DNA of 64,000 nucleotides, taken from assembly GCA_902515745.1 (NCBI GenBank), contig CABXWB010000005.1:21303-85302 (forward strand). Direction: 5' to 3'. Position numbers and translations under genes: made by a program. This stretch comes from an uncultured Alphaproteobacteria bacterium. Its GTDB lineage: Bacteria > Pseudomonadota > Alphaproteobacteria > HIMB59 > GCA-002718135. The notes under the pieces are model-generated. The model was not told the DNA's origin, did not search any database, and saw only the letters and a list, made by a program, of their open reading frames with translations. Below, piece after piece: positions 16,004-62,353 of this stretch (position 1 is the stretch's first letter; every line of letters starts with the position of its first letter).

Positions 16004-16482
16004 TAAGTTGTATAAGGATTATTAATTCCAAATGATCCTAAAATTTTTATCTCCTCGTTTTTCATTTTTTTAAAATCTGAATTTTTTTTATGATCATATC
16101 CGTTAATATGCAATAAACTATGGATTAGTAAATGGTTAAAATGATCATATATGCTAACTTTATTTTTGTATATGAATTTTTCAATAGTATCTATAGAGAA
16201 AAAAATATCACAATATAAAATTTTTCCAACATTTTTATTTGAATTCTTTAAAATAAAAGTAAGAACATCTGTGTCTAGTTGTTTATTTTTATAGATTTTA
16301 TTAAGTTTTATCATTTTTTCTTTATCAGATAAAATTATATTTAATTCAAATCTATGATCTCTTTTAAAATAAGAGCTCATCTTATTAATAGTTTTTTTTG
16401 TAATAATTTTAATTTTTGGTATTCTTCTCGGCCATTTTTTAGATTGTGAAAAAAATTCAACTTTTATGTTTTTCATATGCAT
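16003..16482 (-). CDS. ybeY: rRNA maturation endoribonuclease YbeY
   Basis: 159 aa. The zinc motif HSLLHINGYDH is present. Confidence 0.9.
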   Translation of the reverse strand: MHMKNIKVEFFSQSKKWPRRIPKIKIITKKTINKMSSYFKRDHRFELNIILSDKEKMIKLNKIYKNKQLDTDVLTFILKNSNKNVGKILYCDIFFSIDTIEKFIYKNKVSIYDHFNHLLIHSLLHINGYDHKKNSDFKKMKNEEIKILGSFGINNPYTT

Positions 16483-26704: not shown

Positions 26705-27517
26705 ATGAAATTTGAAACAAATAAAAAATTTTACCGCACAATTTGGATTTCGGATACCCATCTAGGAACTAGTGGTTGTAAAAGCAAAATGCTTTTAGAA
26801 TTCTTAGAGGAAACAGATTCAGAATATCTATTTTTAGTAGGCGACATTGTTGATGGATGGCGCATGCGTAAGAAAATGTATTGGCCTCAAGAACATAACG
26901 ACGTGGTTCAAAAAGTTTTAAAGAAAGCAAAAAATGGAACTAAGGTAGTGCTTATCCCAGGAAATCATGATGAAGTATTAAAAGATTTTACAAATTTCTC
27001 CTTTGGAGAAATTTCAATCAAAAACGAAGATACGCATCAATTAGCTGATGGAAGGAAAGTACTGATTACACACGGAGATGAGTTTGATGCTGTGATCATT
27101 AATGCAAGATGGTTAGCCAAAGTGGGATCAGCACTTTATGAATATTTACTAAAGTTAAATAATGTATTTAATTTTATTCGAAGAAAGATGGGTTTATCTT
27201 ACTGGTCACTGTCTCAATATTTAAAAAAGAAAACAAAGCATGCAACGAACTTTATTAGCAATTTTGAGTTTGCTGTATCTGATAGGGCAAGAAGAGAAAA
27301 TGCCGATGTTGTTGTCTGTGGGCATATACATAGACCTGAAATAAAGGAATTAAATGGTGTTCTCTATTGTAATGATGGTGACTGGATTGAAAGTTGTACA
27401 GCACTCGTTGAAGATGAAATTGGCAATTTATCAATTCTTAATTGGCCCGAAGAAAGAGAAAAATTAAAGTTAATTTCTTTTGAAGAAAGACGAAAAATAA
27501 AAGAGGATGCAGCCTAA
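26705..27517 (+). CDS. plcP: LpxH-like metallophosphoesterase, probable phosphate-starvation phospholipase C (PlcP-type)
   Basis: 270 aa. It has calcineurin-fold motifs (ISDTHLG, GDIVDGW, GNHD, GHIH). It is translationally coupled to a GT4 glycosyltransferase, the arrangement described for PlcP-Agt lipid remodelling. Confidence 0.65.
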   Translation: MKFETNKKFYRTIWISDTHLGTSGCKSKMLLEFLEETDSEYLFLVGDIVDGWRMRKKMYWPQEHNDVVQKVLKKAKNGTKVVLIPGNHDEVLKDFTNFSFGEISIKNEDTHQLADGRKVLITHGDEFDAVIINARWLAKVGSALYEYLLKLNNVFNFIRRKMGLSYWSLSQYLKKKTKHATNFISNFEFAVSDRARRENADVVVCGHIHRPEIKELNGVLYCNDGDWIESCTALVEDEIGNLSILNWPEEREKLKLISFEERRKIKEDAA

Positions 27518-29541: not shown

Positions 29542-30594
29542 ATGGAAATTACAATTCTAATTTTTTTATTTGGTGGTCTTTTTTTAGGTTGGTCACTTGG
29601 TGCCAATGATGCAGCAAATGTTTTTGGGACTGCTGTTGGGACGCGAATGGTTGGTTTCACAACTGCAGCAATAATTTGTAGTGTCTTTGTTATTCTAGGT
29701 GCAATTATTAGCGGAGCAGGTACAACAGAAACTTTAGGAAAGTTAGGTGCTATTAATGCATTGCCTGGTGCTTTTGCAGCATGTGTGGCTGCGGGAATAT
29801 CTGTTTATTTAATGACCAAAGTTGGCTTGCCTGTTTCAACAACGCAAGCGATTGTTGGAGCAATTGTTGGTTGGAATTTATACACGGGATCTTCAACTAA
29901 TCTTCAAGTTTTAATTACTATTTTAGGAACATGGATACTCTGTCCTATTATTGCAGGAGTTATTGCAATGGGTTTATTTACTTTTACAAAAAAAGTTATA
30001 CTCAATAGAAAGTTACATATTCTCAGACTTGATGCCTATACAAGAACAGCTTTACTTTTAGCAGGTGCTTTTGGTGCTTATAGTTTAGGTGCAAACAATA
30101 TTGCTAATGTAATGGGTGTCTTCGTACCTATATCACCGTTTACTGATGTTACTATTGGAAATTTATTTGTCTTTTCCTCAAAAGAACAATTATTTCTTCT
30201 AGGTGGTTTAGCAATAGCTGTTGGTGTTTTTACTTACTCGAAAAGAGTTATGTTTACCGTTGGTAATGATCTCTTAAAAATGACACCAGTAGCAGCATTT
30301 ATTGTTGTTATATCACATTCTATTGTTTTATTTTTATTTGCATCCCAGGGTATAAGTGCTTTTTTACAATCTATAAATCTTCCCTCTATACCTTTGGTAC
30401 CAGTATCAAGTTCCCAAGCTGTTGTCGGCGGCGTAATTGGAATTGGTCTTTTAAAAGGAGGAAAAGAGGTTCAATGGTCAATTGCGGGTAGAATTTCTTT
30501 GGGTTGGATGACGCTACCTATAATTGCAGCTTTAATTTCTTTAATTGTTTTATTTATTCTAGAAAATATTTTTAATTTAACGGTCTCTTTTTAA
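29542..30594 (+). CDS. pit: Inorganic phosphate transporter, PiT family
   Basis: 350 aa. It has duplicated PHO4 signatures GANDAANVFGTAVG and GANNIANVMG, plus PVSTTQAIVGAIVG. Confidence 0.92.
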   Translation: MEITILIFLFGGLFLGWSLGANDAANVFGTAVGTRMVGFTTAAIICSVFVILGAIISGAGTTETLGKLGAINALPGAFAACVAAGISVYLMTKVGLPVSTTQAIVGAIVGWNLYTGSSTNLQVLITILGTWILCPIIAGVIAMGLFTFTKKVILNRKLHILRLDAYTRTALLLAGAFGAYSLGANNIANVMGVFVPISPFTDVTIGNLFVFSSKEQLFLLGGLAIAVGVFTYSKRVMFTVGNDLLKMTPVAAFIVVISHSIVLFLFASQGISAFLQSINLPSIPLVPVSSSQAVVGGVIGIGLLKGGKEVQWSIAGRISLGWMTLPIIAALISLIVLFILENIFNLTVSF

Positions 30595-31115
30595 TTAACT
30601 GCTCGATAAGAAAAAATAAAATCTTCCTGGATTTTTGACTCAATAGCTCCTTTTCTTCTTGATCGTACTAGATCAATAGCTTCTTGTTTTTCATAATTAA
30701 ATTCAACAAGTAAAATAGCAGCTATAGTGCCAGCTCTTCCTTTGCCTCCACGGCAATGTAAAACTATATTTTTACCATCTATCAATTCGTTCTTTAATAA
30801 AACTTTTGTTGTTTCCCATTTATATTTAAAATCTTTATCTGGTGCTCCCATGTCATAAATGGGTAAATGGTACCAATGTAATTTATGTTCATAAATATTT
30901 TTGACAAACAAAGTTTTATCACACAATTTTTCAAATTCGCTATCTTCAACAAAAGAAGTAATAGAACTACAATTATTATTTTTAAATATTTCTAATTCGT
31001 TTGCTAAAATTGTTTCTTCAAATAAACCATTAGAGTTAAGGCCTGGAAAAGAAGTTAATATAATTTTGCCTGCAAATGACTTAGAGTCAATAAAATCATA
31101 ATTGCTAAATTGCAT
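30591..31115 (-). CDS. Cys-X5-Arg phosphatase (dual-specificity/PTP-like fold)
   Basis: 174 aa. It carries the P-loop VLHCRGGKGRAGT. Confidence 0.8.
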   Translation of the reverse strand: MQFSNYDFIDSKSFAGKIILTSFPGLNSNGLFEETILANELEIFKNNNCSSITSFVEDSEFEKLCDKTLFVKNIYEHKLHWYHLPIYDMGAPDKDFKYKWETTKVLLKNELIDGKNIVLHCRGGKGRAGTIAAILLVEFNYEKQEAIDLVRSRRKGAIESKIQEDFIFSYRAVN

Positions 31116-31691
31116 TTACGCTTGTTTAGCTAAAAAAGACTGTCTTGCTTCTTCTAAATAGGAACGGAAATGTTCAACATCGGGAGTTTTTTTATCTAGA
31201 ACTTTTGCTAAATCATCAAATCTTCTAAGCTCTACTGCTTCATCCATAAAAGGTTTGCTTATGAACGCATCTGCTTCTTCTTTTGTGAAAGGACCACCTT
31301 GAACTTTTAACGAAAGTTTCGATGCTTCTGATAGACTATCATAATAACCTTCTTCAACACTTGATAAATATCTTTTTGAGTCAACATGTGCTCTAATTGG
31401 TAGAATAACATCCTCACCAAAATATTTTTTTAAAAAATCAGCACCTAAATTTTCATGATGACCATCTTTCCCTTCATGAATGGGATCACCGTCCTCATAG
31501 ATAAGGTGGCCAACATCATGCAGTAATGCTGCAGCAATTGTTGGTCCTGGTAATTTATGTTTTTCAGCAAGTTCAGCACATTGGAGTGCGTGCTCAAGTT
31601 GGGTCACATCCTCATTACCATATTGAATATCAGCACCTTTTGTTTTCAAAAGATCTAAGAGATAATCTACAATATTTTCTTCCATTCTCAT
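31116..31691 (-). CDS. phnZ: HD-domain mixed-valent di-iron oxygenase, PhnZ-like (C-P bond-cleaving 1-hydroxy-2-aminoethylphosphonate dioxygenase family)
   Basis: 191 aa. Motifs QLEHALQCA, AALLHDVGH, HHENLGADFL, RAHVDSKRYL, LSEASKLSLKVQGGPF and RRFDD align with PhnZ as I recall it. The Tyr24/Glu27 pair (DIQYGNED) is present. Confidence 0.75.
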   Translation of the reverse strand: MRMEENIVDYLLDLLKTKGADIQYGNEDVTQLEHALQCAELAEKHKLPGPTIAAALLHDVGHLIYEDGDPIHEGKDGHHENLGADFLKKYFGEDVILPIRAHVDSKRYLSSVEEGYYDSLSEASKLSLKVQGGPFTKEEADAFISKPFMDEAVELRRFDDLAKVLDKKTPDVEHFRSYLEEARQSFLAKQA

Positions 31692-31779
31692 TTATAATTA
31701 ACTTATTAGAAAATAAATTCAATTCCAACTTTAATAAGATTGATCAAATTTATAATAATATTTATTAAGTAAATATTTA

Positions 31780-32877
31780 ATGGATAAAAAATTATTAACC
31801 CCTGGGCCTCTCACGACATCGATGTCAACAAAAGAAGCTATGCTTCATGATTGGGGTTCGAGAGATACAAAATTTATTGATCTCAATGCATCAATTAGAG
31901 ATTCTCTTGTTAAATTAATAGATGGTGAAGATAAATATCAATGTGTTCCAATGCAGGGAAGTGGAACTTTTGCTGTAGAGTCGATGGTGAGCTCTCTTAC
32001 TCAAAAAGATTCTAAAATTCTGATTCTGATCAATGGTGCTTACGGACAAAGAATGAAAAAAATGTGCACATATTTAGGGAGAGATTTTATTGAATATGAA
32101 GTTGCTGAACATGAAGTACATGACATCAATAAAATTGAAGAGTTAATTGATAGCAACAACTTAACGCACGTCTTTACTGTATATTGTGAAACAACATCGG
32201 GTATTTTAAATCCTATTGAAGACATTGCAAAATTGGTTGAAGGGAAAAATTTATCGTTATTCATCGATGCAATGAGTGCCTTTGGTGCATTACCCTTAAG
32301 TTCTAAAACAATTACTTTTGATGCTGTTGCCGCTTCATCAAACAAATGCTTAGAAGGTGTGCCAGGTGTTGGTTTCATTCTTGTTAAAAATGAAGTTATT
32401 CAAAATGCAAAAGGCAATAGTCACTCACTAAGTCTAGACTTATATGATCAATGGCAAGCAATGGAAAAAAATAAACAATGGCGATTTACACCTCCTACAC
32501 ACGTATTGGCTGCATTCAATCAAGCGATTGAGGAACATAAACAACAAGGTGGGGTAGAGGGAAGAGGTAAAAGATATAAAAAAAATTGTGAAATTATTTG
32601 TAATGGAATGAAAGAGTTGGGATTTGAACAACTACTTCCTGATAATTTGCAAGCACCAATTATTATTACTTTTAAACAACCTAATGATCCTAAATTTAAC
32701 TTTGAGAAATTTTATAATGCTCTTAGTGAAAAAGATTTTTTAATTTATCCAGGAAAACTAACAGTAGCAGAAACTTTTAGAATTGGGTGTATTGGTAATT
32801 TAGATGAACAAGACATGATGGATACAATAAAAGCTGTAAAAGAAGTCGTTACTGAATTGGGATTAACATTAAACTAA
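31780..32877 (+). CDS. phnW: 2-aminoethylphosphonate:pyruvate aminotransferase PhnW
   Basis: 365 aa. It has the N-terminus LLTPGPLTTSMSTKEAMLHDWGSRD and a class V aminotransferase fold. Confidence 0.9.
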   Translation: MDKKLLTPGPLTTSMSTKEAMLHDWGSRDTKFIDLNASIRDSLVKLIDGEDKYQCVPMQGSGTFAVESMVSSLTQKDSKILILINGAYGQRMKKMCTYLGRDFIEYEVAEHEVHDINKIEELIDSNNLTHVFTVYCETTSGILNPIEDIAKLVEGKNLSLFIDAMSAFGALPLSSKTITFDAVAASSNKCLEGVPGVGFILVKNEVIQNAKGNSHSLSLDLYDQWQAMEKNKQWRFTPPTHVLAAFNQAIEEHKQQGGVEGRGKRYKKNCEIICNGMKELGFEQLLPDNLQAPIIITFKQPNDPKFNFEKFYNALSEKDFLIYPGKLTVAETFRIGCIGNLDEQDMMDTIKAVKEVVTELGLTLN

Positions 32878-32884
32878 CAAAATA

Positions 32885-33517
32885 ATGACAAAAGAAATTG
32901 AAATACCATTAGTTAAAGCAACAAATGAAAATCTTAAAGGATACGGATATTTAATCGATAGTTTTGAAAATAGTGATATTGAAATTGTTACTTGGCCAAA
33001 ACAAGGATGGCGCGAAATAGAAGAGGGAACTGGTAATGAAGGTGGAACTACCGAAGGTTCTTTTGATACATGGTGGCAAGGTGACGTGCTTTTTGGACAA
33101 AATAATGCTGTGCAACATAAAAGTGATTATGAAGTAGATGGAAAATATATACTGGGTTATGCCAATAATCCTGATCAAGAATTACAAAAAGATAAATATT
33201 CAGATCCAACAAAAATATTTCTATGGCATGCAAATTATCATCCTGATGGAGGTCAGCTTTTCTTTCCTGAAGAAAATAAACCATTTATTTGTCCTTTAGC
33301 CTTACCAACAGACGACATTGAACCAGAACATTTTAAAGCATTTTATTGTGATGGATCAAAAGGTTTGTATATTCATCCAAACATTTGGCATGAAGGGGTG
33401 TTTCCAGTTACAGAAAAACAATCGTTTCAAGGAAAACAAGGTAAAGTACATGCAAGAGTTAGCATCGACTTAAAAGAGGAATTTAATAAATATATTTATT
33501 TTAAAACTGCGATCTAA
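32885..33517 (+). CDS. Ureidoglycolate-lyase (AllA)-fold protein of unknown function
   Basis: 210 aa. It has an N-terminal PLVKATNENLKGYGYLI and a C-terminal HPDGGQLFFP...FKAFYCDGSKGLYIHPNIWHEG that parallel AllA (HPLGTQAFIP...GVNYHRNVWHHP). Its start lies 7 nt after the phnW stop. Confidence 0.6.
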   Translation: MTKEIEIPLVKATNENLKGYGYLIDSFENSDIEIVTWPKQGWREIEEGTGNEGGTTEGSFDTWWQGDVLFGQNNAVQHKSDYEVDGKYILGYANNPDQELQKDKYSDPTKIFLWHANYHPDGGQLFFPEENKPFICPLALPTDDIEPEHFKAFYCDGSKGLYIHPNIWHEGVFPVTEKQSFQGKQGKVHARVSIDLKEEFNKYIYFKTAI

Positions 33518-33537
33518 TTATAAATTTATATTTAATA

Positions 33538-34326
33538 ATGAAAATTATTCACCTTTCAGACCCCCATATTTATATAGATAAGATTCATGGCATAGATCCT
33601 GTCAGTAAATTTAAAAAAGCATTAAGTCATATAAAAAATAATCATGGTGATGCGGATTTATTTGCCATCACTGGTGATATTACAGACTTAGGTGATAAAG
33701 ATTCTTATCAGTTATTTATAAAAATAATTGATGAAGCAAATCTGCCAAAGAATTTAAATCCTCAATTAATTATAGGTAATCATGATAACAGAGACGAGTT
33801 TAAAATAAACTTTCCTAATATTGAAACCGATCCAAATGGATTTATTCAATACTTTAAGGATATAGATAATAAACGTTTAATTTTTATAGATACTAATCTG
33901 ATTAACACTCACCAAGGACATTACTGTAAAGAGAGGCAAGAATGGTTAAATAATATTTTAAGTAAGACTAATACGGATACGTACATCTTTATGCATCATA
34001 ATCCACTAGCATTAGTAAAAGAGGAAAGTGATGGAATAGGATTACAACAAAAAAAAGAGTTTCAACAAATTTTAACTAAAAATAATAAGATAATAAAACA
34101 TATTTTTTTTGGTCATCAACACATTACAAGTTCTGGTTCTTATTGTGGTATTACTTTTTCCTCCCCAAGAAGTACTTGGTCTCCTCTAATACCTAACTTT
34201 TCAAATGAATATCGTTTAGGAACGGCTAATACAGATACAAATTATAATGTTGCAATAATTCGATCAGACGCCTTAATTATTCATACAGAGGATTTTTTAA
34301 AAACAGAAGTTAATTGGTTTAAATAA
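33538..34326 (+). CDS. Calcineurin-type metallophosphoesterase (class III phosphodiesterase, CpdA/GpdQ-like)
   Basis: 262 aa. It carries the motifs HLSDPH, GDITDLG, GNHDN, MHH and GHQH. Confidence 0.8.
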   Translation: MKIIHLSDPHIYIDKIHGIDPVSKFKKALSHIKNNHGDADLFAITGDITDLGDKDSYQLFIKIIDEANLPKNLNPQLIIGNHDNRDEFKINFPNIETDPNGFIQYFKDIDNKRLIFIDTNLINTHQGHYCKERQEWLNNILSKTNTDTYIFMHHNPLALVKEESDGIGLQQKKEFQQILTKNNKIIKHIFFGHQHITSSGSYCGITFSSPRSTWSPLIPNFSNEYRLGTANTDTNYNVAIIRSDALIIHTEDFLKTEVNWFK

Positions 34327-34330
34327 AAAA

Positions 34331-35437
34331 TTATTTTTTTTCGATTACAAATATTTCATTGTTAAAATAAAGACCTTTATTTTTAGCAACAATGTTTTGA
34401 ACAATTTTTTCATAGTTTTTAGTTTTTTCTACTTTCATTACTTTTTCGTCATCCATTTGATTGACATATATGGAGGCATTCCAAGCAGAAAAAACTAATG
34501 ATGTCGCTATACCTCCGCTGATTTCTGTTGGTAGAGCTCTCAATTTACATTTAATAATTCTTTTTTCTCCAAAAGATAAACTTCTTAATAAATCTTTATC
34601 TAAATTTTTCTTAAGATAAGAAATGATACTATTCCCAAGAGAAGGAAATGGGTCCTCTTTTGGCCAAATTTTACGAATTATTTCATTAGCAGGATCTTTT
34701 CCTGAAGCATGAATAGTTAATAATTTCCCTTTTGATTTTAACGCTCTAATCATTGGTTCGATGACATATTTTGATTTCTTTTCTGCTGAAATTCTTGACC
34801 GATACGGCTGTGAAGCAATAATAAGATCAAATTTATTATCTGATTTTTTTTTGGTAGGTATTAATTCATTTACGTTAAATTCTTGATCTTCGCGGTAGAT
34901 AACCATGACTGAAGGCTCTTTATAAGTATGGTTACCTGACTTTTTATTAATTTCTATATTCCATTTTTTTTCTAAAAATTCATTTTGTTTTCTTAATTGT
35001 TGGGCAAATTCAAGAGAGGTATCTCCTTTTAATTTAATAATATTCCAATTAATTTTTTTCTGTTTAACTTCATTTTTTGATTTTAGGTTTGCGGCTTCAG
35101 CGTAGTGTAGATTTGAAATGACAAAAACCGTATTCTTATGTTCAACAAACCTGTCGGGTAATTTTTCTAAACCTAATCTTACATCTTCTATGCTTATTTC
35201 TTTTGTGCAAACTAATAGAGGTACGTTAGGCTTAGCCTCGTGGCACTGACGCATAACATTCATAAGTAAGGAGCCATCACCCATACCAGCATCAAATATT
35301 TTTATGCCAGGTTTTTGAGGTTTAATTTTATTTACGTGAGGGCGTATCGCATCAGCAATTTGATTTTTTTCATTTGTTGTTGTGACAAATAATAAGTATT
35401 TTTGTCTATTATCATAAAACCTGAAATTTTTTTTCAT
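34331..35437 (-). CDS. Hypothetical protein with a class I SAM-methyltransferase-like motif
   Basis: 368 aa. It has IKIFDAGMGDGS (motif I-like) and DLIIASQPY (motif IV-like) separated by a Lys-rich insert. I recognise no confident family. Confidence 0.4.
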   Translation of the reverse strand: MKKNFRFYDNRQKYLLFVTTTNEKNQIADAIRPHVNKIKPQKPGIKIFDAGMGDGSLLMNVMRQCHEAKPNVPLLVCTKEISIEDVRLGLEKLPDRFVEHKNTVFVISNLHYAEAANLKSKNEVKQKKINWNIIKLKGDTSLEFAQQLRKQNEFLEKKWNIEINKKSGNHTYKEPSVMVIYREDQEFNVNELIPTKKKSDNKFDLIIASQPYRSRISAEKKSKYVIEPMIRALKSKGKLLTIHASGKDPANEIIRKIWPKEDPFPSLGNSIISYLKKNLDKDLLRSLSFGEKRIIKCKLRALPTEISGGIATSLVFSAWNASIYVNQMDDEKVMKVEKTKNYEKIVQNIVAKNKGLYFNNEIFVIEKK

Positions 35438-35439
35438 TA

Positions 35440-36552
35440 CTAATAAAGTCCCATTGATTTAGCAGAAGAGATGAATGCTTCTTTATTGCCAATAAAGTTT
35501 TTACCTCGTTCCCCTAAAAACGCATCATCTACTATATTATTCCATTCTTGAACAGGAACTTTTATTTCATTTAAGTTAAGAGGAACCTCTAAAGAACGCA
35601 TAAATTCACTCAAATGATTTGCGGCATTCTCTAGGTTATCGTTAAAAATTAACTTTAGTCTTTCTTCAGCTACACTATCAATTCCAACCATACTTTTAGT
35701 AATCATGGGTAAAGTAAATGAACAAGCAATACCATGCTGAATACCGTAATTGAGTGTCACAGGGTATGATAGATTGTGCGCAATAGCAGTTTTCGTATTG
35801 GAAAACGCTAAGCCAGCATGAACGCACGCCAATGCAATGTTTGAGCGTAATACAACATTTCTTAAATCTTTAGTGAGAAGTGGTAAATTTTCTAATACTA
35901 ATTTTGATGCTTGTATTGCATGAGAAGCAGAAATTGGGTTCGCATTAATATTCCAAATACTTTCCATCGAATGGGAGAGAGCATCTAAACCAGTTGAAAT
36001 GGTCAAGCCTAAAGGCTTATCAACCATAATAGATGGATCAATAATTGCTTTTTCTGCATAAAGAGATTTGTGCGCCAAAGATAATTTATTGTTTTTTTCT
36101 TTATCCCAAATTGTGGCCCAACACGTAAGCTCACTTGATGTTCCTGAAGTTGTAGGTATTGCAATAATCTTGATTGGATTTTCGACTCTTGGACTTTTCT
36201 TATTACGAACAAAATCTGTTAGATATTCTTGTTTATCTTTAAATGCAGCAATTGCTTTAGCTGTGTCTGTAACAGAACCACCACCTATAGCTAAAATATA
36301 ATCTACCGATTCATTGATTGAAGAAAATTTATTTTGTAGCTCTAAAATATCCTTATAGTCTGGATTAGGCTGAACATCCGTCATAATGGATAGTGGTGGA
36401 TTTGAAGAAGATTTTAATTCATCGCTATATTTTTTAAATATTTCTTCTGGATGTGTGATTATGATGTAGTTCTTATTTTTAAGAGCATCATGTACTTCTT
36501 TAAATCTATTTTCTCCAAAAATAATTTCAACAGGGTTAAAATAATTCCACAT
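35440..36552 (-). CDS. Iron-containing alcohol dehydrogenase (group III ADH; size and context compatible with the phosphonoacetaldehyde reductase/HEP dehydrogenase subfamily)
   Basis: 370 aa. It has AIGGGSVTDTAK, GLDALSH and a HxxxH region (AIAHNLSYP...QHGIA). Confidence 0.8.
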   Translation of the reverse strand: MWNYFNPVEIIFGENRFKEVHDALKNKNYIIITHPEEIFKKYSDELKSSSNPPLSIMTDVQPNPDYKDILELQNKFSSINESVDYILAIGGGSVTDTAKAIAAFKDKQEYLTDFVRNKKSPRVENPIKIIAIPTTSGTSSELTCWATIWDKEKNNKLSLAHKSLYAEKAIIDPSIMVDKPLGLTISTGLDALSHSMESIWNINANPISASHAIQASKLVLENLPLLTKDLRNVVLRSNIALACVHAGLAFSNTKTAIAHNLSYPVTLNYGIQHGIACSFTLPMITKSMVGIDSVAEERLKLIFNDNLENAANHLSEFMRSLEVPLNLNEIKVPVQEWNNIVDDAFLGERGKNFIGNKEAFISSAKSMGLY

Positions 36553-36556
36553 TACA

Positions 36557-37636
36557 TTAAATTGATTTTGCCGCTTTAGTTAAAATTGTCATTTTCTCAA
36601 TTGCTTGTTCTCGCGTAAAGAAACCTAAACCACAATCTGGTGCAGCTATTAAACGGTCTTCATCAATATGTTCAAGTGAATCTTTGATACGGACTCTTAC
36701 TTCTTCAACAGACTCCATTCTACTTTTTGCAATATCAATAAATCCAAAAATTACTTTTGTTTTTGTAAATTTTTCTAAAAGATTTAAGTCATTATGTCTG
36801 TGGGAATCTTCCAAAGATACTTCATCAATAGTTGAATCATCTACAAGTGATGCAATTCTATCATAAGCATCTAGATCAGCTTTTTTATAACCTTCTGAAT
36901 CTAGTGAGTTGGGATAACCACAACAAATATGACATACACGTTGAACTTCTTTAGGAATACCATGCATCATTCTTTCTAAATTTTCCATACCATATGAATG
37001 AGCTTCATCGGGCTTTCTAGCAAATACTGGTTCATCAATTTGAATATACTGACAGCCTGCATCTACAAGTGCTTTAACTTCTTTATTAAGTGCTAATGCT
37101 AAATCAAAACCAAGTTTTTTCATGTCATCATAGTAGTTGTTCGCAATTGAATCTGTTATTGTCATTGGTCCAGGTAGGGTAATTTTAACTGGATTTTTTG
37201 TAAATTGTTGTGCGCTCTTCCAGTCTAGATGCATACGTATTTCTTTACTTGAAATCGGTGCAACAATAGTTGGAAGATCAGCTTCGAACGCACCTTGTCG
37301 TACTGACTTATGTGTAACTTCTTTAAAACTTACTCCATTTAAAAATCGACATTGATATAAGACATAACTCTCACGTCTCACTTCTCCATCTGTTGGAACA
37401 TCAATTCCCGCATTTACCTGATCAATAATAACTTCTTTAATTGCTTCTAAAAATAATTTTTCAGCATCCGCACCCGCAGACTCTAACGCTTTTTCATATG
37501 CACCAGGTGACCAATTCGATAATAATCCTTTTGACGCTTTTCTCTCTTCTTCTGATTTTGTCCCTAAAAACCAATCTTGAATCGGCGTCTGTTTTGGTTT
37601 TGGATATGCACCTATGGTAGTAGTTGTAAGAGGCAT
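36557..37636 (-). CDS. MetE C-terminal-domain-only protein (cobalamin-independent methionine synthase / alkyl-thiol transferase superfamily)
   Basis: 359 aa. It has IQIDEPVF, RVCHICCGYP (a His-x-Cys zinc motif) and APDCGLGF (the distal zinc Cys). An SD sequence GGGAGA lies upstream. Confidence 0.8.
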   Translation of the reverse strand: MPLTTTTIGAYPKPKQTPIQDWFLGTKSEEERKASKGLLSNWSPGAYEKALESAGADAEKLFLEAIKEVIIDQVNAGIDVPTDGEVRRESYVLYQCRFLNGVSFKEVTHKSVRQGAFEADLPTIVAPISSKEIRMHLDWKSAQQFTKNPVKITLPGPMTITDSIANNYYDDMKKLGFDLALALNKEVKALVDAGCQYIQIDEPVFARKPDEAHSYGMENLERMMHGIPKEVQRVCHICCGYPNSLDSEGYKKADLDAYDRIASLVDDSTIDEVSLEDSHRHNDLNLLEKFTKTKVIFGFIDIAKSRMESVEEVRVRIKDSLEHIDEDRLIAAPDCGLGFFTREQAIEKMTILTKAAKSI

Positions 37637-37718: not shown

Positions 37719-38972
37719 CTATAAAAGATCCTCTATTTCTTCCATCATCTCTTCTTGAAGATCAGCCATATTATCTGCACTGCCTGTAGCAATTTCTTCA
37801 GTGTAATCATATATTACCTGAGTTATTGCTAGACCGTTTTCACCAGGATATGCAAACCAATCAGCCAATAAAGGTAATTGATTTACAGCAGTTAGCTTGT
37901 TTGGATTTTTAGTATAAAAATCACCTAACAAATCATTGGCTGCTTTATTTGGTGGAACATATCCAGTAGTTTCAGCAACTAAAGCTGCACCTATACCAGA
38001 AGTGATAAACTTTAAGAAAGTCCATGCAGCATCTACTCTTGCTGGATCATCAGATGTAGAAACCAACATCGCAGCATTTCCACCCGCTGGAAGTCTTGCT
38101 GGAGTTCCTCCATTTACACCTGGCATTCCTGGAAATGGTGCTGTTTTAAGTTCAAAATCTGCTTTGGCTGCGTTCACTGAACCTAAGCTTGATGTTGACC
38201 AGAAAAACATACCAATAGTGCCTGCATTAAATGCAGCTTGACCGTCAGCAATTGAATAGTTTGGCATATTACAACCACTCATTATGTCATGCATTTGTTG
38301 TAAAGTTGCTAAACCAGCGTCTCCACCCATATTAACAGCACCATCTTTTACCATTGGAACATTTTGGGTATGCATTAATGCTTGGTGAAACCAGTTACCT
38401 GTAATATTCCAACCAAAATATAAAGTTCCTTTTCCAGCTGCTTCTAATTTATTACAAGCTGCGATAACTTCATCCCAGTTAGTTGGGATGCTATCTATAC
38501 CTGCTTCAGCTAATAGATCCATGTTATAGTATCCAACTGGTGTTGATACAGAAAAAGGCAACCCATATACGTCACCACCAAAGGTAGATAGACTTAACAT
38601 AGCAGAGTGATAACCATCTTTTTCAAAGTCAGCTTCTCCTGCAATAAAAGGCTCTAATGATTTTGCAATCCCTTTATCAACAAGTGGTGCTTGTCTGTTA
38701 AGACCTTGCATTGTTACATCTGGTAAATTACCTGAAGTAGACTCCCTGAAGATTGTTGCGGTTGCATCCTCATAGTTTTCATAAGTTGCTCTAAATTTAA
38801 CTTGAATATCTGGATGTGCTTTTTCAAACTCTGGCATAATAGCTTGAAACGTAACATCGAATAATCCTGAATAAGGATAAGCTACTTCTATTTCAATAGA
38901 CTTAGCTGAATTAACAGAACCATAAAAACCAAAAGCTAATACGGCTGCCAATCCTGTAATTAATTTTTTCAT
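37719..38972 (-). CDS. ABC transporter periplasmic substrate-binding protein, family 1 (UgpB/sugar-type fold); candidate organophosphonate/organophosphate binder
   Basis: 417 aa with a signal peptide (MKKLITGLAAVLAFGFYGSVNSA). It is flanked by phnY/phnA and by cognate UgpAEC-like genes. Confidence 0.8.
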   Translation of the reverse strand: MKKLITGLAAVLAFGFYGSVNSAKSIEIEVAYPYSGLFDVTFQAIMPEFEKAHPDIQVKFRATYENYEDATATIFRESTSGNLPDVTMQGLNRQAPLVDKGIAKSLEPFIAGEADFEKDGYHSAMLSLSTFGGDVYGLPFSVSTPVGYYNMDLLAEAGIDSIPTNWDEVIAACNKLEAAGKGTLYFGWNITGNWFHQALMHTQNVPMVKDGAVNMGGDAGLATLQQMHDIMSGCNMPNYSIADGQAAFNAGTIGMFFWSTSSLGSVNAAKADFELKTAPFPGMPGVNGGTPARLPAGGNAAMLVSTSDDPARVDAAWTFLKFITSGIGAALVAETTGYVPPNKAANDLLGDFYTKNPNKLTAVNQLPLLADWFAYPGENGLAITQVIYDYTEEIATGSADNMADLQEEMMEEIEDLL

Positions 38973-39109: not shown

Positions 39110-40552
39110 TTACCAAGGTAGCGAAAAGGTTTTTACATTAGTAAAACTTTTCATTGCTTCAATAACACCCTCTTTGTAACCAAGACCTGAATCTTTTATT
39201 CCTCCAAAAGGAGACATTTCAATTCTATAGCCTGGAACCTCCCAAATATTTACCGTACCAACATTTAAACCTTGAATATATTTTTTTGCTCGCATGAAGT
39301 TATTTGTACATACACCAGATGATAATCCGAATGCAGTTGAATTAGATATTTTCATTACAGCTTCATCGTCATTAGGCACACGAATGATTGGGATAACTGG
39401 ACCAAATGTTTCTTCTAAAACCAATTCACTTTTAGGATCAACATTATCTACAACTATTGGAGGTAACAAAGCACCCTTTCTTCCAGGATGATATAAAATT
39501 TTTGCACCGTCTTCTTCAGCCATAGAAACTCTTTTATCAAAAAGTTCTGCAGCTTGAGCATTAACAACAGTACCTAAGTCTGTTTCCATATTCATAGGAT
39601 CGCCAAATTTAATTTTCTTAGCACGCTCTAGAGCCATTTCAACAAATTGATCTGCGATAGATTCTTGTACTAATATTCTTTTAACAGCTGTACAACGTTG
39701 ACCAGAGTTTTTCGTTGCTCCAGTAACAGCTAGCTCAACAGCTTTTTTAAGATCATCACCATCTAAGTCATTTAAAACAATTAATGGATCATTACCACCA
39801 AGCTCAAGAACTGTTCTTTTATATCCAGCTTGTTCAGCAATTAATTTTCCTACACCTACACTGCCTGTAAAAGTAATTAGATCAATATTTGGATTCTTGA
39901 TCATTTCTGATCCGATATCTTGAGGCCAGCCTGTAACAACTGAAAACATTTCTGGTGGTAAACCAGCTTCATATAAAACATCAGCAAGAACCATTGCGGT
40001 TAAGGGAGTTAACTCTGTCTGCTTACAAACAGTACAATTGTTTGTTGCAATTGAAGGCGCAATTTTATGCGCTACCATATTCAAAGGATGATTAAATGGA
40101 GTGATTGCTGAAATAGCTGTTAATGGTTCTCTTATAGTAAATATTTTTCTGGCTTTTCCATGTGGAGTTAAATCACAAGAAAATATTTCTCCATCATCTA
40201 GAATACAAAGTTGAGCCGTTAATGAAAATACATCGAAAGCTCTTCCTACTTCGTATAAAGAATCTTGTTTTGAGATTCCAAGTTCTAAAGTAATAATATC
40301 AGAAATTTCTTCTTTTCTTTTAACAAGTACTTCTGCAGCAGTTTGAAGAATTTTTTGTCTCTCATATCTTGTAAGTTTAGGTTGGTAATTTGCAGCAATA
40401 TCTAGAGCCTTTCTTGCATGCTCAGCAGTACCGGCAGGGACCGTGCCGATTACTTCACCTGTAAAAGGGTACTCAACATTTATTGTTTTGTCTGAAGTAA
40501 CTTTTTCTCCAGCAATACGCATTGCTTCATTAATCATTTTTTTGTGCATCAT
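39110..40552 (-). CDS. phnY: Aldehyde dehydrogenase, probable phosphonoacetaldehyde dehydrogenase PhnY
   Basis: 480 aa. It has ALDH motifs (ELGGNDP, catalytic Cys in GQRCTAV). It overlaps phnA by 4 nt, the arrangement of the PhnW-PhnY-PhnA pathway. Confidence 0.75.
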
Positions 40553-41790
40553 AGGGCTCCATTTATTGCATAATAAAATGCATCATAGTTATATAATTGT
40601 TTGCTAGTATCTATGTTTTGTAATTTTAAATTAGATATGAATGGCACTTCTCTTTCATGAAGTCCACCGTGTGAACGCAAAGGTTCATTTAATCCAGAAA
40701 GATTGTGTTTATCTTTCGATGAACCAATGGTCATAAATTCTGAAGACATACATATTATGTCTCCCATTCTATCAGGGGGTAAGTTATAAGTAGAGCATCC
40801 TTCGTCTTTTGTTAAAACAACTTCTATATCTTTTATTTCTTTGATAGCATTTACAACTGAATCTACCTTACTTTTGTCTTCTAAATAAATTGTTGCAAAA
40901 GAACCAAGTGAACCATGATGCACGACATATGGATCTGTAATTGGTAGAATAACTTTAGCCATGTTTGGTTCAAATTTATTATCTAAATAATCTTGTAAAA
41001 ATATTGCATTAGGTGAACCGTCTTCTTTTGATTTTGGTTTCATACCGTGATCTGCTGTAATGATTATAGAAACATTCTCCTTATTTAAAAGACCAATATA
41101 TTTATCAAACATTGCATAAAATTTATTTGCTGTTTCATTTCCTGGTGCATATTTGTGTTGAATATAATCCGTAGTCGATAAATACATGATATTTGGTTTG
41201 AACTCTTCAAGAAGCTTTACACCTGCGGCCATTACAAATTCAGAAAGTCCTTCAGAGTATACTTCTGGCACTGGCATTCCCAACCAATCGTTTACATTAT
41301 CTATACCATTGAGATCTTTTGTTGCTTGATCAGATTTTTCAGCAGAAAAACAAATAGCTCTCTCATCATTAAAACTTAATCCGTTTCCTAAAAGTGTTCT
41401 CAGCTTATCTTTTGCAGTAACAAGAGCAATTTTAGAACCAGAATTGTAAAATTTTTCAAAAATAGTTGGTGCTCGCATATATTTTGGGTCATTCATCATT
41501 ACTTCTTCACCAGTCTCAGGTGTATAAAAGAAGTTTCCGCATATACCGTGAACAGAACTTGGCTGCCCAGTTACAATGGAAATATTATTAGGATTTGTAA
41601 AACTTGGAATAGCGCTGTGGACAAGTAGGTTTTCACCGTTTGCAATTAATTTATCAAGATTTGGTGTAAGATCTGATTTTGATGCTTCGTCGAGATACTC
41701 TTTTTGACTACCATCAAGGCATATAACAATAGCAGTTTTTGAGAAAGAGGTTGGATATTCTCTTTTATTAATTTCTAAATTATCGGACAC
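40549..41790 (-). CDS. phnA: Phosphonoacetate hydrolase PhnA (alkaline-phosphatase superfamily)
   Basis: 413 aa. The sequence [14 protein letters not shown]...[28 protein letters not shown] matches the PhnA signature as I recall it. Confidence 0.8.
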
Positions 41791-41970: not shown

Positions 41971-43110
41971 GTGGGCACAATATCACTTAAAAATATTTCA
42001 AAGTCATTTGGGTCTACGCAAGTATTAAACAATTTAAATGTTGATATACAAGAGGGTGAATTTTTAACATTAGTTGGTCCATCTGGTTGTGGTAAATCCA
42101 CCTTACTCCGAATCATTGCAGGATTAGAACAACAAACTTCAGGCGATGTATTAATTGATAATAAGAATGTAAATAAAATTAGAGCCAGCGAGCGAGATCT
42201 TGCAATGGTATTTCAATCATACGCTTTATATCCACATTTAACTGTAAGAAAAAATTTAGAAACACCTCTAAGACTGAGAGATTATAATGCTTTTGAACGC
42301 CTTCCTTTAATAGGGAATTTTTCTCCAAACAAAAAAAATAAAACTGAGTCTATCAATCAATTAGTTAATAAAACATCTGAAACACTTCAGATTTCTGAAC
42401 TACTGGATAGAAAACCAGGACAATTATCAGGGGGCCAAAGACAAAGAGTAGCTCTTGGTCGCGCAATGGTAAGAGAACCTGTTGCATTCTTAATGGATGA
42501 ACCACTGTCAAATTTAGATGCCGCTCTAAGAGTGCATATGCGATCTGAATTATCGGAACTTCACAATTCACTTAAAACAACATTTGTTTATGTAACGCAT
42601 GATCAAGCAGAAGCATTAACAATGTCTTCTCGTATGGCGGTAATGATTGATGGCAATCTATTACAACTTGATACACCACAAGAAGTATATGATAATCCTT
42701 CATCATTAAGTGTTGCACAATTTGTTGGCAGTCCTAAAATAAATATTTTTAATGGATCTTCAGATTCTAGTGGAACTGTTAATTTTTTAAATGTTAACCT
42801 AAAAAGAAAAAGTTCTGAAAGTAATTCAGATTTACACATAGGAATTCGACCAGAACATTTAGAAATTACTAATAATAAAGATGAAAACACATTTAGTGGC
42901 ACTGTTGCTTACAGAGAAAATTTAGGATCAGATATATACTTCCATGTTAATATAGAAGACAACTCAAAAAAAATAATTGTAAGAGGCTTACCTCAATTTA
43001 CACATCAAATTACAAATGGTTCAAGTGTAAATATCAAGAGAGATTCAAATAAAGCATTGTTATTTAATCAAACAGGGATGAGGATTCATTTTAATAATGC
43101 AATGGGATAA
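41971..43110 (+). CDS. ABC transporter ATP-binding protein, MalK/UgpC type (GTG start)
   Basis: 379 aa. It has Walker A GPSGCGKST, the LSGGQRQRVALGRA signature, Walker B FLMDEPLSNLD and a C-terminal regulatory domain. The SD sequence is GGGGAGGAG. Confidence 0.9.
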   Translation: MGTISLKNISKSFGSTQVLNNLNVDIQEGEFLTLVGPSGCGKSTLLRIIAGLEQQTSGDVLIDNKNVNKIRASERDLAMVFQSYALYPHLTVRKNLETPLRLRDYNAFERLPLIGNFSPNKKNKTESINQLVNKTSETLQISELLDRKPGQLSGGQRQRVALGRAMVREPVAFLMDEPLSNLDAALRVHMRSELSELHNSLKTTFVYVTHDQAEALTMSSRMAVMIDGNLLQLDTPQEVYDNPSSLSVAQFVGSPKINIFNGSSDSSGTVNFLNVNLKRKSSESNSDLHIGIRPEHLEITNNKDENTFSGTVAYRENLGSDIYFHVNIEDNSKKIIVRGLPQFTHQITNGSSVNIKRDSNKALLFNQTGMRIHFNNAMG

Positions 43111-43125
43111 GGATAATATTTACTA

Positions 43126-44082
43126 ATGCATAATTCAAAGGCTCATCTATGGTTTATTGCCCCTGCAATAATACTCATGATAATTATTTTAATCTTTCCT
43201 CTTTTTCTTGCAGGTGGGATTTCCTTTACTGACTATAATTTAGGCAACAAAACATTTGAATGGATTGGGTTAGAGAACTATGACAAAATGTTTAACCGAA
43301 AAACTTATGTGAAGATGATTTGGGCAACAGCAACGTATGTAATTGTTGTGGTGCCTATTTCAGTTATACTTGGTTTATGTGCAGCAATGCTCTTAAATTC
43401 TCTACGATTTGGTGCTGACATATATAAAACTATTTTCTTTCTTCCAGTTATGGCGACGCTTCTGGCAATGGCTATTGCGTGGGAATTCACTCTTCACCCA
43501 ACTCTTGGAATAGTAAATAGTTTTTTAGCTAATGGTTGTGGTGGAGCAAGAGAATTTATTTTTGGTTTTCATTGGTTACCATGGGTAAACTCAGAACAAA
43601 GCTGGTATGCAGTGGCATGTGCTAATAACATGGACTTTCCTTATTGGTTAAAACAAAAAAATACTGCAATTTGGACTGTGTGTTTTATTGGAATATGGCA
43701 AGCCTTTGGTTTCAATATGGTTTTATATTTAGCCGGATTAACAGGTATACCAAGAGAACTATATCAAGCTGCCGAAATGGATGGAGCTAAATCAACATGG
43801 GAACAATTTAAACTTGTGACATGGCCAATGCTTGGTCCAACAACTTTATTTGTTGTAACCATAACGACTATTAGAACCTTTCAAGTTTTTGATACAATTG
43901 AAATACTCACAAAAGGTGGTCCATCTAAAACAACCTATGTTATGATGTATGCAATTTTTGAAAAAGCTATTCAACAAAATTTAACAAGTATTGGTGCAGC
44001 TATCACAGTTGTCTTCATTGGCTTTATATTGATATTAACTTTCTTCCAAAGATATATCATTGAGAAAAGGGTTCATTATTAA
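43126..44082 (+). CDS. ABC transporter permease (UgpA/MalF-like)
   Basis: 318 aa. It has the EAA loop ELYQAAEMDGAKSTWEQFKLVTWPML. Confidence 0.88.
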   Translation: MHNSKAHLWFIAPAIILMIIILIFPLFLAGGISFTDYNLGNKTFEWIGLENYDKMFNRKTYVKMIWATATYVIVVVPISVILGLCAAMLLNSLRFGADIYKTIFFLPVMATLLAMAIAWEFTLHPTLGIVNSFLANGCGGAREFIFGFHWLPWVNSEQSWYAVACANNMDFPYWLKQKNTAIWTVCFIGIWQAFGFNMVLYLAGLTGIPRELYQAAEMDGAKSTWEQFKLVTWPMLGPTTLFVVTITTIRTFQVFDTIEILTKGGPSKTTYVMMYAIFEKAIQQNLTSIGAAITVVFIGFILILTFFQRYIIEKRVHY

Positions 44083-44975
44083 TGGAAGCTAAACAGTATA
44101 TTGGGGAAGGTTGGAAACATGCAATATTGATTATTGGTGCAATTGTTGTGTTGTTGCCTTTTTATATGATGGTTTCAATGTCATTAAAATCTCAACAAGA
44201 AATTCAATCTATTTCTGGAGGCCTAATTGGTGCTCAAGAAACTCAGACATTTCCCGTATGTGTAAAAACTGGATACTCAGAAGAAGAATGCACAATGAAA
44301 CCATATAAATACAACTATTGGTTTGCTTTCGAAAAGGCTCCCATTCCAAGATACTTGATGAATGGTGTTATTGTAACTTTATCAATTTTTATCATTCAAG
44401 TTCTTGTCGCTTTACCGTGTGCCTACGCTCTGGCCAAACTTAGATTTTATGGACGAGAGTTTGTTTTCTCCATGGTGTTATTTTGTTTACTCATCCCAGT
44501 GCATGGAATTGCACTTCCACTTTACGTCATGCTTGCCCAGGCAGGTTTGGTCGATACCTATTCTGCCTTAATACTCCCCTGGACAATATCGGTGTTTGGA
44601 ATTTTTCTAATGCGGCAATTTTTTATGACAGTCCCAGATGAATTAATTGACGCCGCCAGGATGGATGGAATGGGAGAGTATGCTATAGTCTGGAAAGTAA
44701 TGCTTCCAACTGCGATACCAGCATTACTTGCCTTTGCTATTTTCTCAGTAGTTGCACACTGGAATGATTATTTCTGGCCTCGAATGGTAATTACTGGAAA
44801 TAGAGATCTCTTTACGCCACCTCTTGGTATCAGAGAATTTAGAGGTGGAATTGATAGTGATGAGTTTGGTCCAATGATGGCTTCAATTGTTACAGTAACA
44901 GTACCTCTCATTGTTGCTTTTATAATTGCGCAAAAAAGATTTATTGAAGGAATTACTTTAACAGGAATGAAGTAA
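44082..44975 (+). CDS. ABC transporter permease (UgpE/MalG-like)
   Basis: 297 aa. It has the EAA loop ELIDAARMDGMGEYAIVWKVMLP. Confidence 0.88.
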   Translation: MEAKQYIGEGWKHAILIIGAIVVLLPFYMMVSMSLKSQQEIQSISGGLIGAQETQTFPVCVKTGYSEEECTMKPYKYNYWFAFEKAPIPRYLMNGVIVTLSIFIIQVLVALPCAYALAKLRFYGREFVFSMVLFCLLIPVHGIALPLYVMLAQAGLVDTYSALILPWTISVFGIFLMRQFFMTVPDELIDAARMDGMGEYAIVWKVMLPTAIPALLAFAIFSVVAHWNDYFWPRMVITGNRDLFTPPLGIREFRGGIDSDEFGPMMASIVTVTVPLIVAFIIAQKRFIEGITLTGMK

Positions 44976-57934: not shown

Positions 57935-57945
57935 TTGGTTATAAA

Positions 57946-62292: not shown

Positions 62293-62317
62293 AATAACTC
62301 CTTTATAAGCAAGTATT
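62293..62317 (-). promoter_or_regulatory. ROSE-like RNA thermometer hairpin masking the hsp20 Shine-Dalgarno
   Basis: In the minus-strand RNA AAUACUUGCU-UAUAA-AGGAGUUAUU, the conserved UUGCU pairs with AGGAG including a G.G opposition. The stem ends at the AUG. Confidence 0.5.
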
Positions 62318-62353
62318 AATGTCGGCACCCACAATGGCATACTGACATTTATG

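Follow-up and report, generated by a model that had tools for sequence, protein, structure and literature searches.

Which substrate does an HD-domain oxygenase of the PhnZ/TmpB type use when the gene for its Fe(II)/2-oxoglutarate (2OG) hydroxylase partner (PhnY*, TmpA) is missing from its surroundings? This question is raised by a 64-kb stretch of contig CABXWB010000005.1 from an uncultured Alphaproteobacteria bacterium (the whole of these 64,000 nucleotides is called the window in the following), in which an HD oxygenase gene stands divergently from phnW and the latter is followed by a gene for a protein with the fold of the ureidoglycolate lyase AllA (AllA-like). The window carries a SAR11 (Pelagibacterales) phosphate-scavenging hypervariable island with a multi-substrate phosphonate catabolic cluster inside. 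The phnWAY+phnZ type is represented here by a SAR11 variant that has the AllA-fold gene, a phosphodiesterase and a probable 2-hydroxyethylphosphonate dehydrogenase in addition. The partnerless state of such oxygenases is already known; the recurrence of the AllA-fold gene beside the phosphonate genes of many unrelated bacteria is the more unexpected result.

The HD protein, which a preliminary description of the locus had matched by eye to PhnZ over its whole length, could be aligned end to end with TmpB (PDB entry 6NPA, E 2e-31, the best PDB sequence match) and with PhnZ (4MLM, E 4e-29). All six di-iron ligands (H34, H58, D59, H79, H102 and D159) are present and aligned with those of PhnZ and TmpB, the positions first left ambiguous being H79, not H78, and D159, not D160. 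The gating loop YxxE reads Y24-G-N-E27, and H62 is also conserved; when SAR11 homologues are aligned with a betaproteobacterial homologue and the roseobacter TmpB proteins, none of the ligands varies, nor do Y24, E27 and H62. Mixed-valent di-iron oxygenases need no external reductant, the YxxE loop gates their active site and its Glu hydrogen-bonds the substrate amine (PMC8177086). The Tyr24/Glu27 pair had been read as recognition of a 2-amino group; it is present and invariant, but it is no mark of 2-amino substrates, since TmpB has the pair too.

Compared with PhnZ of the uncultured bacterium HF130_AEPn_1 (4MLM/4N6W), the SAR11 protein shares the six ligands, the YxxE loop, H62, the length and an all-helical fold (template modelling score, TM, 0.83-0.89), whereas it forms a separate clade (36% identity), has no adjacent PhnY* and lies inside a phnWAY cluster. 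Ligands, loop and fold are likewise common to TmpB of Leisingera caerulea (38% identity), but TmpB is preceded by TmpA, and the SAR11 protein reaches 154 bits on the TmpB equivalog, for which the cutoff is 300. By identity it is closest to a bona fide TIGR03276 protein from a betaproteobacterium (locus L048, 49%). By sequence, it is sister to the TIGR03276 "PhnHD" clade and lies near, not inside, the named families.

Pfam detects a generic HD domain only, and phosphatases and phosphate transporters are found among the neighbours, as would suit an ordinary HD phosphohydrolase (a nucleotidase or a (p)ppGpp-type enzyme) in a phosphate-starvation island. This identity is nevertheless very improbable. 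The protein has the full H...HD...H...H...D di-iron motif together with the YxxE loop, and for its AlphaFold2 (AF2) model (mean predicted local distance difference test, pLDDT, 90.6) each of the ten PDB matches with E<=0.001 is a chain of PhnZ or TmpB (E<=8e-9, TM 0.82-0.89). The next HD proteins, namely PgpH, MESH1/SpoT-type and small alarmone hydrolases, follow at E>=0.05 and TM ~0.3. Because the structural matches are restricted to PhnZ/TmpB, this comparison, which the preliminary description had proposed, makes a nucleotidase or (p)ppGpp hydrolase very unlikely. Judged by family, ligands and modelled fold, the HD protein is a PhnZ/TmpB-type di-iron oxygenase.

The absence of a nearby 2OG hydroxylase, also claimed before, was confirmed. 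The direct Pfam scan comprised 50 of the 62 non-shadow open reading frames (ORFs) of at least 100 aa in the window. Nine further ORFs were covered only via the Pfam annotation of syntenic loci, the major facilitator superfamily transporter also via NCBIfam, and three short ORFs (12-332, 8820-9185 and 61855-62340; 106-161 aa) were outside the Pfam scan, of which 61855-62340 is IbpA-like by NCBIfam. Among the 50 scanned ORFs, no member of the PhyH, TauD or 2OG-FeII families was found. A tblastn search with TmpA as query gave no match in the 64-kb window, in 37 SAR11 GTDB loci or in eight SAR11-context loci (L001-L006, L087, L088), each taken with +-10 kb. The query was validated at 588.6 bits on NF049936, and the same search recovers all seven roseobacter copies. 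No adjacent PhnY* or TmpA is therefore found at the SAR11 HD gene; in relatives, where an adjoining tmpA had been suggested as a counter-check, the gene stands beside roseobacter TmpB orthologues only, and neither the SAR11 clade nor its closest relative has it.

A hydroxylase of the conventional PhnY*/TmpA type, with its gene at another site in the genome, could still make the substrate from 2-aminoethylphosphonate (2-AEP), as the search covered only the window and +-10 kb per locus and split pathways exist: in Achromobacter, phnW is located away from the phosphonatase cluster (PMC11203657). Little credence is given to this alternative. The characterised pairs are operonic, no TmpA homologue occurs in any SAR11-context locus examined, pseudomonads, Achromobacter and a third or so of the phnWAY clusters show the same orphan state (see below), and a hydroxylase route would duplicate PhnW on the same substrate. 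The FA_hydroxylase-family gene at 58955-59965 was considered as the missing hydroxylase and rejected, as it lies 27 kb off, beside a weakly PhnS2-like transporter only.

Two SAR11 loci show a different arrangement in the same PhoU/PHO4 island (L004:9556-15453 and L005:5173-9835). Here, an HD oxygenase that is 69% identical (P0218) has as neighbours a GntI-like/choline-kinase-fold kinase (NF041256, 153 bits, below cutoff) and an ATP-binding cassette (ABC) transporter of the AEP type. No 2OG oxygenase, PhnW or AllA-like gene was found in this context.

The preliminary description had regarded an HD oxygenase without hydroxylase as odd, which is contradicted by published surveys. Among 19,425 complete genomes (Zangelmi 2021), phnZ was present in 24 of 75 phnWAY clusters (32%) and in 15 of 1186 phnWX clusters, never together with pbfA, and the 24 phnWAY clusters with phnZ were without phnY* (PMC8154272). 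They were read as a separate processing of (R)-1-hydroxy-2-aminoethylphosphonate (R-HAEP), a natural compound that is poorly handled by PhnW and PhnX and only slowly transaminated by PhnW (PMC8154272). For the TIGR03276 clade, whose genomic context often includes phosphonate-catabolism genes, proteins accompanied by PhnW and PhnX but not by PhnY* were reported from Achromobacter and some pseudomonads; HAEP was modelled as substrate and the function was termed a conundrum (Epiktetov 2024, PMC11203657). In marine data, phnZ co-occurs with phnA or phnX at 30-50% (Lockwood 2022, PMC9381506). A partnerless phnZ is a documented architecture with a putative explanation accepted in the literature, and the pairing of an oxidative with a hydrolytic route at a single locus also falls within the known phnWAY+phnZ pattern.

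The window fits this pattern: PhnW, PhnY and PhnA, each of which exceeds the curated cutoff of its model, stand with a phnZ homologue, so that the hydrolytic route indeed shares the locus with the HD oxygenase, and no class-III aminotransferase that could be pbfA was found among the Pfam-scanned window ORFs. The TIGR03276 "PhnHD"/phnWAY+phnZ clusters likewise have an orphan HD gene beside PhnW and PhnY/PhnA, with neither PhnY* nor PbfA. Compared with them, the SAR11 version is located in a phosphate-island hotspot and has additional AllA-like, phosphodiesterase, PhpC and MetE-like genes. PbfA, an R-HAEP ammonia-lyase, fills the niche of the orphan phnZ, which is the disposal of R-HAEP in AEP clusters (PMC8154272). 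Unlike the HD oxygenase, it is a pyridoxal phosphate (PLP) enzyme that yields phosphonoacetaldehyde, and it co-occurs with AllA-like genes in two of the loci described below (L077, L084).

The AllA-fold gene was found to be real and, as stated before, without a described role in phosphonate catabolism. Its product matches PF04115 with 40 bits (gathering threshold 23) over residues 119-182 only. For the AF2 model (pLDDT 81), the top Foldseek matches, and the only strong ones, are the AllA structures 2BDR, 1XSQ and 1YQC (E 5e-8 to 3e-7), and a profile of diverse family members matches AllA in the PDB with E 5e-14. The best score at the equivalog level for AllA (NCBIfam PRK03606) is 33 bits, where the cutoffs are 160-315. 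On the basis of profile and model, the protein is a genuine, divergent AllA relative. Neither Pfam nor NCBIfam gave a PhyH, TauD or GBBH match for this ORF, and no 2OG oxygenase is among the Foldseek matches.

With the lyase, a metal-dependent cupin, it shares the fold and a core of H119-P-x-G-x-Q124 and W168-H169: in the alignment, N117-Y-H119-P-D121-G-G-Q124 stands opposite E-R-H-P-L-G-T-Q of AllA, and W168-H169 opposite W-H. In contrast to AllA (~15% identity), it is 50 residues longer with an extra N-terminal segment containing W37 and R43, it has Asn in place of the Glu at -2 from the His, and it adjoins phnW, not purine or allantoin genes; neither allantoicase nor allantoinase was found in the window. 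A signature of 13 residues could be defined (W37, R43, H115, H119, D121, Q124, H164, W168, H169, Q185, H189, R191 and E199; motifs TWPKQGWR, NYHPDGGQ, WHE and KQGxVHAR), of which D121, Q185, H189, E199, W37 and R43 are family-specific. The family comprises 710 cluster representatives (50% identity, E<=0.001) and is present in at least 596 GTDB species. AllA of E. coli is a Ni2+-dependent lyase that releases urea from ureidoglycolate (PMC3793230), and a DUF4867 protein binds its metal by two His and two Glu inside the barrel (PMC11968277). Because these relatives are metal-binding, a metal site is, by analogy, likely in the AllA-like protein as well.

The association with phosphonate genes, for which a check had been recommended, is present. 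Of the family, with its at least 596 GTDB species, 80 loci were covered. In SAR11, PhnW is located immediately upstream of the AllA-like gene in 33/33 loci, the HD gene lies within 2 kb in 29/32, and the phosphodiesterase follows immediately downstream in 25/36. In other lineages, at least one validated phosphonate gene was found within 8.3 kb, usually within 2.5 kb, in 16 of the 50 AllA-like loci. Like the SAR11 cluster, roseobacters have the gene with an HD oxygenase: it directly follows tmpB in seven TmpA-TmpB loci, an order found in Leisingera, Ruegeria, Thalassobius and Amylibacter, whose representatives score above cutoff (TmpA 588.6 bits, TmpB 362 bits). One Amylibacter metagenome-assembled genome has a TmpB-like gene (74%) followed by the AllA-like gene without TmpA within +-10 kb (L075:9249-10606), and another Amylibacter locus (L046) has the complete TmpA-TmpB-AllA-like order. 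The betaproteobacterial locus L048 contains the SAR11 component set, namely HD, PhnY, PhnA, an ABC transporter of the phnS2 (AEP) type, PhnW and AllA-like.

Further combinations are found elsewhere. Arenicellales have PhnW next to PhnY, orf234 and AllA-like, and in a deltaproteobacterium a transporter of the phnS2 (AEP) type comes after the AllA-like gene (binding protein 508 bits). A cyanobacterium combines PhnX-like and AllA-like with an FAD oxidase of the HpnW type (465 bits), another betaproteobacterium has PhnW, AllA-like and HpnW, and in Thalassomonas the AllA-like gene is divergent from PhnX (315 bits) and Phn_aa_oxid (642 bits). In Rhodospirillaceae, MttB-like, DMGDH-like and AllA-like genes stand beside PhnW and PbfA (670 bits). 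In full, this locus (L077:997-8702, syntenic in L084) reads LysR, then MttB-like (a methyltransferase; TIGR02369, 352 bits), DMGDH-like FAD/GcvT and AllA-like, then PhnW, PbfA, LysR and an iron-type alcohol dehydrogenase (Fe-ADH); by its gene content, it looks like a demethylation route for N-methylated AEP that is joined to AEP/HAEP catabolism.

The neighbours in the remaining 34 of 50 loci are carbamoylase or dihydropyrimidinase genes (all Sneathiella), class-III aminotransferases, ilv/leu genes or uninformative. In four Sneathiella loci (L067, L074, L078, L083), an AllA-like gene with the identical signature adjoins a gene of the allantoate-amidohydrolase/carbamoylase family; in two others (L062, L080), such a gene is flanked by an NMT1-type ABC transporter and a gene for a dihydropyrimidinase. 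Any functional proposal must account for this non-phosphonate context too. The 13 residues are identical in 48 of 50 loci regardless of context, and the phosphonate-linked members are scattered over the neighbour-joining tree, which together suggests one conserved chemistry that was repeatedly recruited. Full-text literature searches combining PhnZ or phosphonate with ureidoglycolate (lyase) gave no paper in the library searched that connects AllA-like proteins to phosphonates. The AllA-like gene is a recurrent accessory gene of aminophosphonate clusters; this repeated linkage appears to be undescribed and is the result most worth follow-up.

Could the AllA-fold cupin itself replace PhnY*/TmpA, as a 2OG-independent metal oxygenase or otherwise, and make the 1-hydroxy substrate? 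Members of the AllA family depend on a metal (Ni2+; in the DUF4867 relative, Fe), an HxD motif (Asp two residues after the conserved His) and H189 are found in the AllA-like family and are both absent from AllA, and the gene is paired with a TmpB-like HD gene without TmpA in the Amylibacter locus L075 and with an HD gene in SAR11 and L048. Even so, such a replacement is hardly to be expected: the gene directly follows TmpA-TmpB in the seven roseobacter loci that already have a hydroxylase, it occurs in clusters without any HD oxygenase (L044, L049, L061, L070, L077, L084, L094) and in non-phosphonate contexts with the identical residue signature, and it has no detectable similarity to 2OG oxygenases.

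That the AllA-like cupins are instead an unrecognised metal-dependent enzyme family of aminophosphonate catabolism, a new "phosphonate breakdown factor" with a reaction so far undescribed for phosphonates, is a tentative proposal, a real possibility towards which we remain on the doubtful side. One possibility, by analogy to AllA, would be a C-N or C-X cleavage or isomerisation at the hydroxylated carbon, which might feed or tidy the PhnW and HD routes. As a working view of low confidence, an AllA-type metal-assisted cleavage or isomerisation might act on the hydroxylated carbon of an AEP-related or beta-amino compound. The case resembles that of DUF4867 (SqvB/SftX, 9GYY) in sulfoglycolysis, a metal-binding cupin, distantly related to AllA and among the Foldseek matches, that recurs as an accessory gene in organosulfonate clusters with seemingly complete pathways in which no enzymatic step is missing (PMC11968277); however, DUF4867 forms a separate family (PF16161) and its context is sugar sulfonates, not aminophosphonates. 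Two racemase candidates were rejected. A cofactor-free HAEP racemase activity of the AllA-like protein seems chemically implausible without redox assistance, and the Fe-ADH does not qualify as the PbfF racemase, which belongs to a different family (PF02826).

Taken together, we lean slightly towards the view that imported or ester-released R-HAEP is cleaved by the partnerless HD oxygenase inside a phnWAY-type SAR11 cluster, with the AllA-like protein as an accessory enzyme. PhnW would convert 2-AEP and the PhpC-type Fe-ADH would convert 2-hydroxyethylphosphonate to phosphonoacetaldehyde, from which PhnY and then PhnA would produce acetate and phosphate. The HD oxygenase would need no hydroxylase partner if R-HAEP, its predicted substrate, or a close 1-hydroxyphosphonate arrives already hydroxylated, either by import or by release from phosphonate esters through the neighbouring phosphodiesterase. 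The uptake of preformed R-HAEP, one of the explanations offered in the preliminary description, is the one already favoured in the literature. With O2, the HD enzyme would then turn R-HAEP into glycine and phosphate and thus cover a compound poorly handled by the PhnW route, the same job that the PLP lyase PbfA does in phnZ-less clusters. The AllA-like gene is probably co-transcribed with phnW. Its product, a putative metal-dependent cupin that keeps an AllA-type motif, would most likely be an accessory enzyme for an AEP-related compound and not the missing hydroxylase.

Several points weigh against this reading. The HD protein scores 201.4 bits on TIGR03276 ("phosphonate degradation HD-domain oxygenase"), below the cutoff of 214.6, and 154.0 and 154.1 bits on the equivalogs for TmpB (NF049941) and the hydroxymethylphosphonate dioxygenase PhnZ1 (NF052439), both with a cutoff of 300. 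Its identity to PhnZ and TmpB, the characterised enzymes, reaches only 36-38%. TIGR03276 cannot resolve specificity, because a genuine TmpB scores 197.9 bits on it (the HD protein of L048 scores 229.9). Among the phnZ subclades, only the original PhnY*Z form was reported to be 2-AEP-specific, and this form is rare in the ocean (Murphy 2021), so that specificity is not uniform across clades. Little is known of how much free R-HAEP occurs in the sea (PMC8154272), and the hydroxylase search covered the window and +-10 kb per locus.

Part of these points favours another 1-hydroxyphosphonate as substrate, such as hydroxymethylphosphonate, N-methylated HAEPs, 1,2-dihydroxyethylphosphonate or 1-hydroxy-2-oxoethylphosphonate. 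The SAR11 protein is equidistant from PhnZ, TmpB and PhnZ1, and phnZ clades differ in their substrates. In one sub-case, PhnW, which transaminates R-HAEP slowly, would make 1-hydroxy-2-oxoethylphosphonate from it, and PhnW, AllA-like and HD would form a single HAEP module, in line with their close linkage in the SAR11 loci. We consider a substrate other than R-HAEP unlikely, yet the least unlikely of the alternatives. The Glu that forms the hydrogen bond to the substrate amine lies in a YxxE loop without variation, the mutual exclusivity of phnZ and PbfA points to HAEP, and no methylphosphonate hydroxylase is present.

The assignment bears on marine surveys. An estimated 45% of marine phnZ comes from Pelagibacterales, and the SAR11 form is very abundant (Lockwood 2022, PMC9381506); in the assembly collection, 532 indexed blocks contain the exact SAR11 HD protein. 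Estimates of oceanic oxidative 2-AEP mineralisation, from <1% to ~20% of cells, hinge on the counting of this SAR11-type clade. The three characterised phnZ clades are of low abundance (Murphy 2021), and a 2023 review put the gap of <1% versus ~20% partly down to clade splitting. Once SAR11 phnZ is seen as partnerless, probably of the HAEP type and part of a phnWAY island, it becomes clearer what is being counted in such surveys. The AllA-fold gene, conserved from SAR11 to roseobacters with the TmpA/TmpB operon first characterised in Leisingera caerulea, is a concrete candidate, open to experiment, for filling a gap in aminophosphonate catabolism. If the proposal is true, the new enzyme would go some way to explaining how the most abundant bacteria of the sea can use PhnZ-type oxygenases that have no partner.

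The gene order around the HD gene is MurJ, SET, PhoU_div, PHO4, protein tyrosine phosphatase (PTP) and HD on the left, and PhnW, AllA-like and metallophosphoesterase, then convergently the 368-aa ORF, Fe-ADH, MetE-like, substrate-binding protein (SBP), PhnY and PhnA on the right, closed by an ABC ATPase and permeases (Table 1). The junctions had been described correctly: PTP abuts HD (31115/31116), the divergent gap between HD and phnW measures 88 nt, and phnW and the AllA-like gene are 7 nt apart. The G + C content of the window is ~30%. At the same spot, related contigs also have PstSCAB, PhoR, polyphosphate kinase and Ppx, and together with PHO4 and PhoU this context identifies the site as the SAR11 phosphate-acquisition variable island. 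The AllA-like protein of the window is 99% identical to copies in GORG-Tropics single-cell genomes (labelled uncultured Alphaproteobacteria); remoter copies carry the label Pelagibacteraceae.

Table 1. Features of the phosphonate cluster and its flanks, with positions in the window.
Feature	Position	Strand	Assignment and scores
PTP	30591..31115	-	174-aa CX5R dual-specificity/PTP-like phosphatase; Pfam PTP-SAK 1.1e-12, DSPc
HD	31116..31691	-	191 aa; PhnZ/TmpB-type HD mixed-valent di-iron oxygenase, predicted from sequence and model
HD/phnW intergenic region	31692..31779		divergent, 88 nt
PhnW	31780..32877	+	2-aminoethylphosphonate:pyruvate transaminase; NF010006 511 bits (cutoff 296), TIGR03301 467 bits (cutoff 361)
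AllA-like	32885..33517	+	210 aa; divergent AllA-fold (PF04115) cupin
Metallophosphoesterase	33538..34326	+	262 aa; SpdA/CpdA-like phosphodiesterase; PF00149 5e-17, NF050112 174 bits (below cutoff)
368-aa ORF	34331..35437	-	no Pfam/NCBIfam family; sub-threshold methyltransferase hint
Fe-ADH	35440..36552	-	PhpC-type, probable 2-hydroxyethylphosphonate dehydrogenase; TIGR03405 363 bits (below cutoff of 423.7)
MetE-like	36557..37636	-	359 aa; Meth_synt_2; part of variable insert, missing in L001
SBP	37719..38972	-	UgpB-like ABC substrate-binding protein; NF008211 67 bits (weak), SBP_bac_1/8
PhnY	39110..40552	-	phosphonoacetaldehyde dehydrogenase; TIGR03250 797 bits (cutoff 636)
PhnA	40549..41790	-	phosphonoacetate hydrolase; TIGR02335 468 bits (cutoff 408)
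ABC transporter	41971..44975	+	UgpC-like ATPase and two permeases

The CX5R phosphatase (motif HCRGGKGR), for which new chemistry had been offered as one possibility, was rejected as a specific partner of the HD oxygenase. It abuts PHO4 across the syntenic SAR11 loci, in L004 a PTP remnant still does so with the HD gene ~5 kb away, and no homologue was found in the 43 non-SAR11 GTDB loci. The gene therefore belongs to the conserved PhoU_div-PHO4 flank and its position beside HD is incidental.

As for the other cluster genes, enzymes of the PhpC-type class (TIGR03405), which the Fe-ADH matches, were recently demonstrated to act in catabolic clusters, where they form phosphonoacetaldehyde by oxidation of 2-hydroxyethylphosphonate (PMC13576164). 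From their sequence families, it is a reasonable inference that the Ugp-like transporter and the SpdA/CpdA-like phosphodiesterase serve the import and de-esterification of phosphonate esters. The 368-aa ORF is kept beside PhnY-PhnA among the SAR11 relatives (370 aa in L001). A scan of 30400-34500 for promoters and terminators, including the sigma-70 consensus, gave counts no higher than in shuffled sequences and was not used.

Parts of the cluster vary between single-cell genomes. The segment 35440-38972 with Fe-ADH, MetE-like and UgpB-like SBP genes is a variable insert that is present in most close genomes and absent from L001, L028, L032 and L034, and in some (L025-L030) permease genes are inserted between the AllA-like gene and the phosphodiesterase.

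Outside the cluster, the ABC transporter in the region 55278-59965 shows weak similarity to PhnS2/T2/U2, all far below the cutoffs, and its binding-protein gene overlaps by 11 nt the 336-aa FA_hydroxylase-family gene mentioned above (membrane di-iron hydroxylase, OlsE-like). Further phosphorus-related genes of the window are a GDPD glycerophosphodiester phosphodiesterase (4788-5543, minus strand) and PhoH (16457-17416, minus strand), and a second metallophosphoesterase is encoded at 26705-27517 (plus strand).

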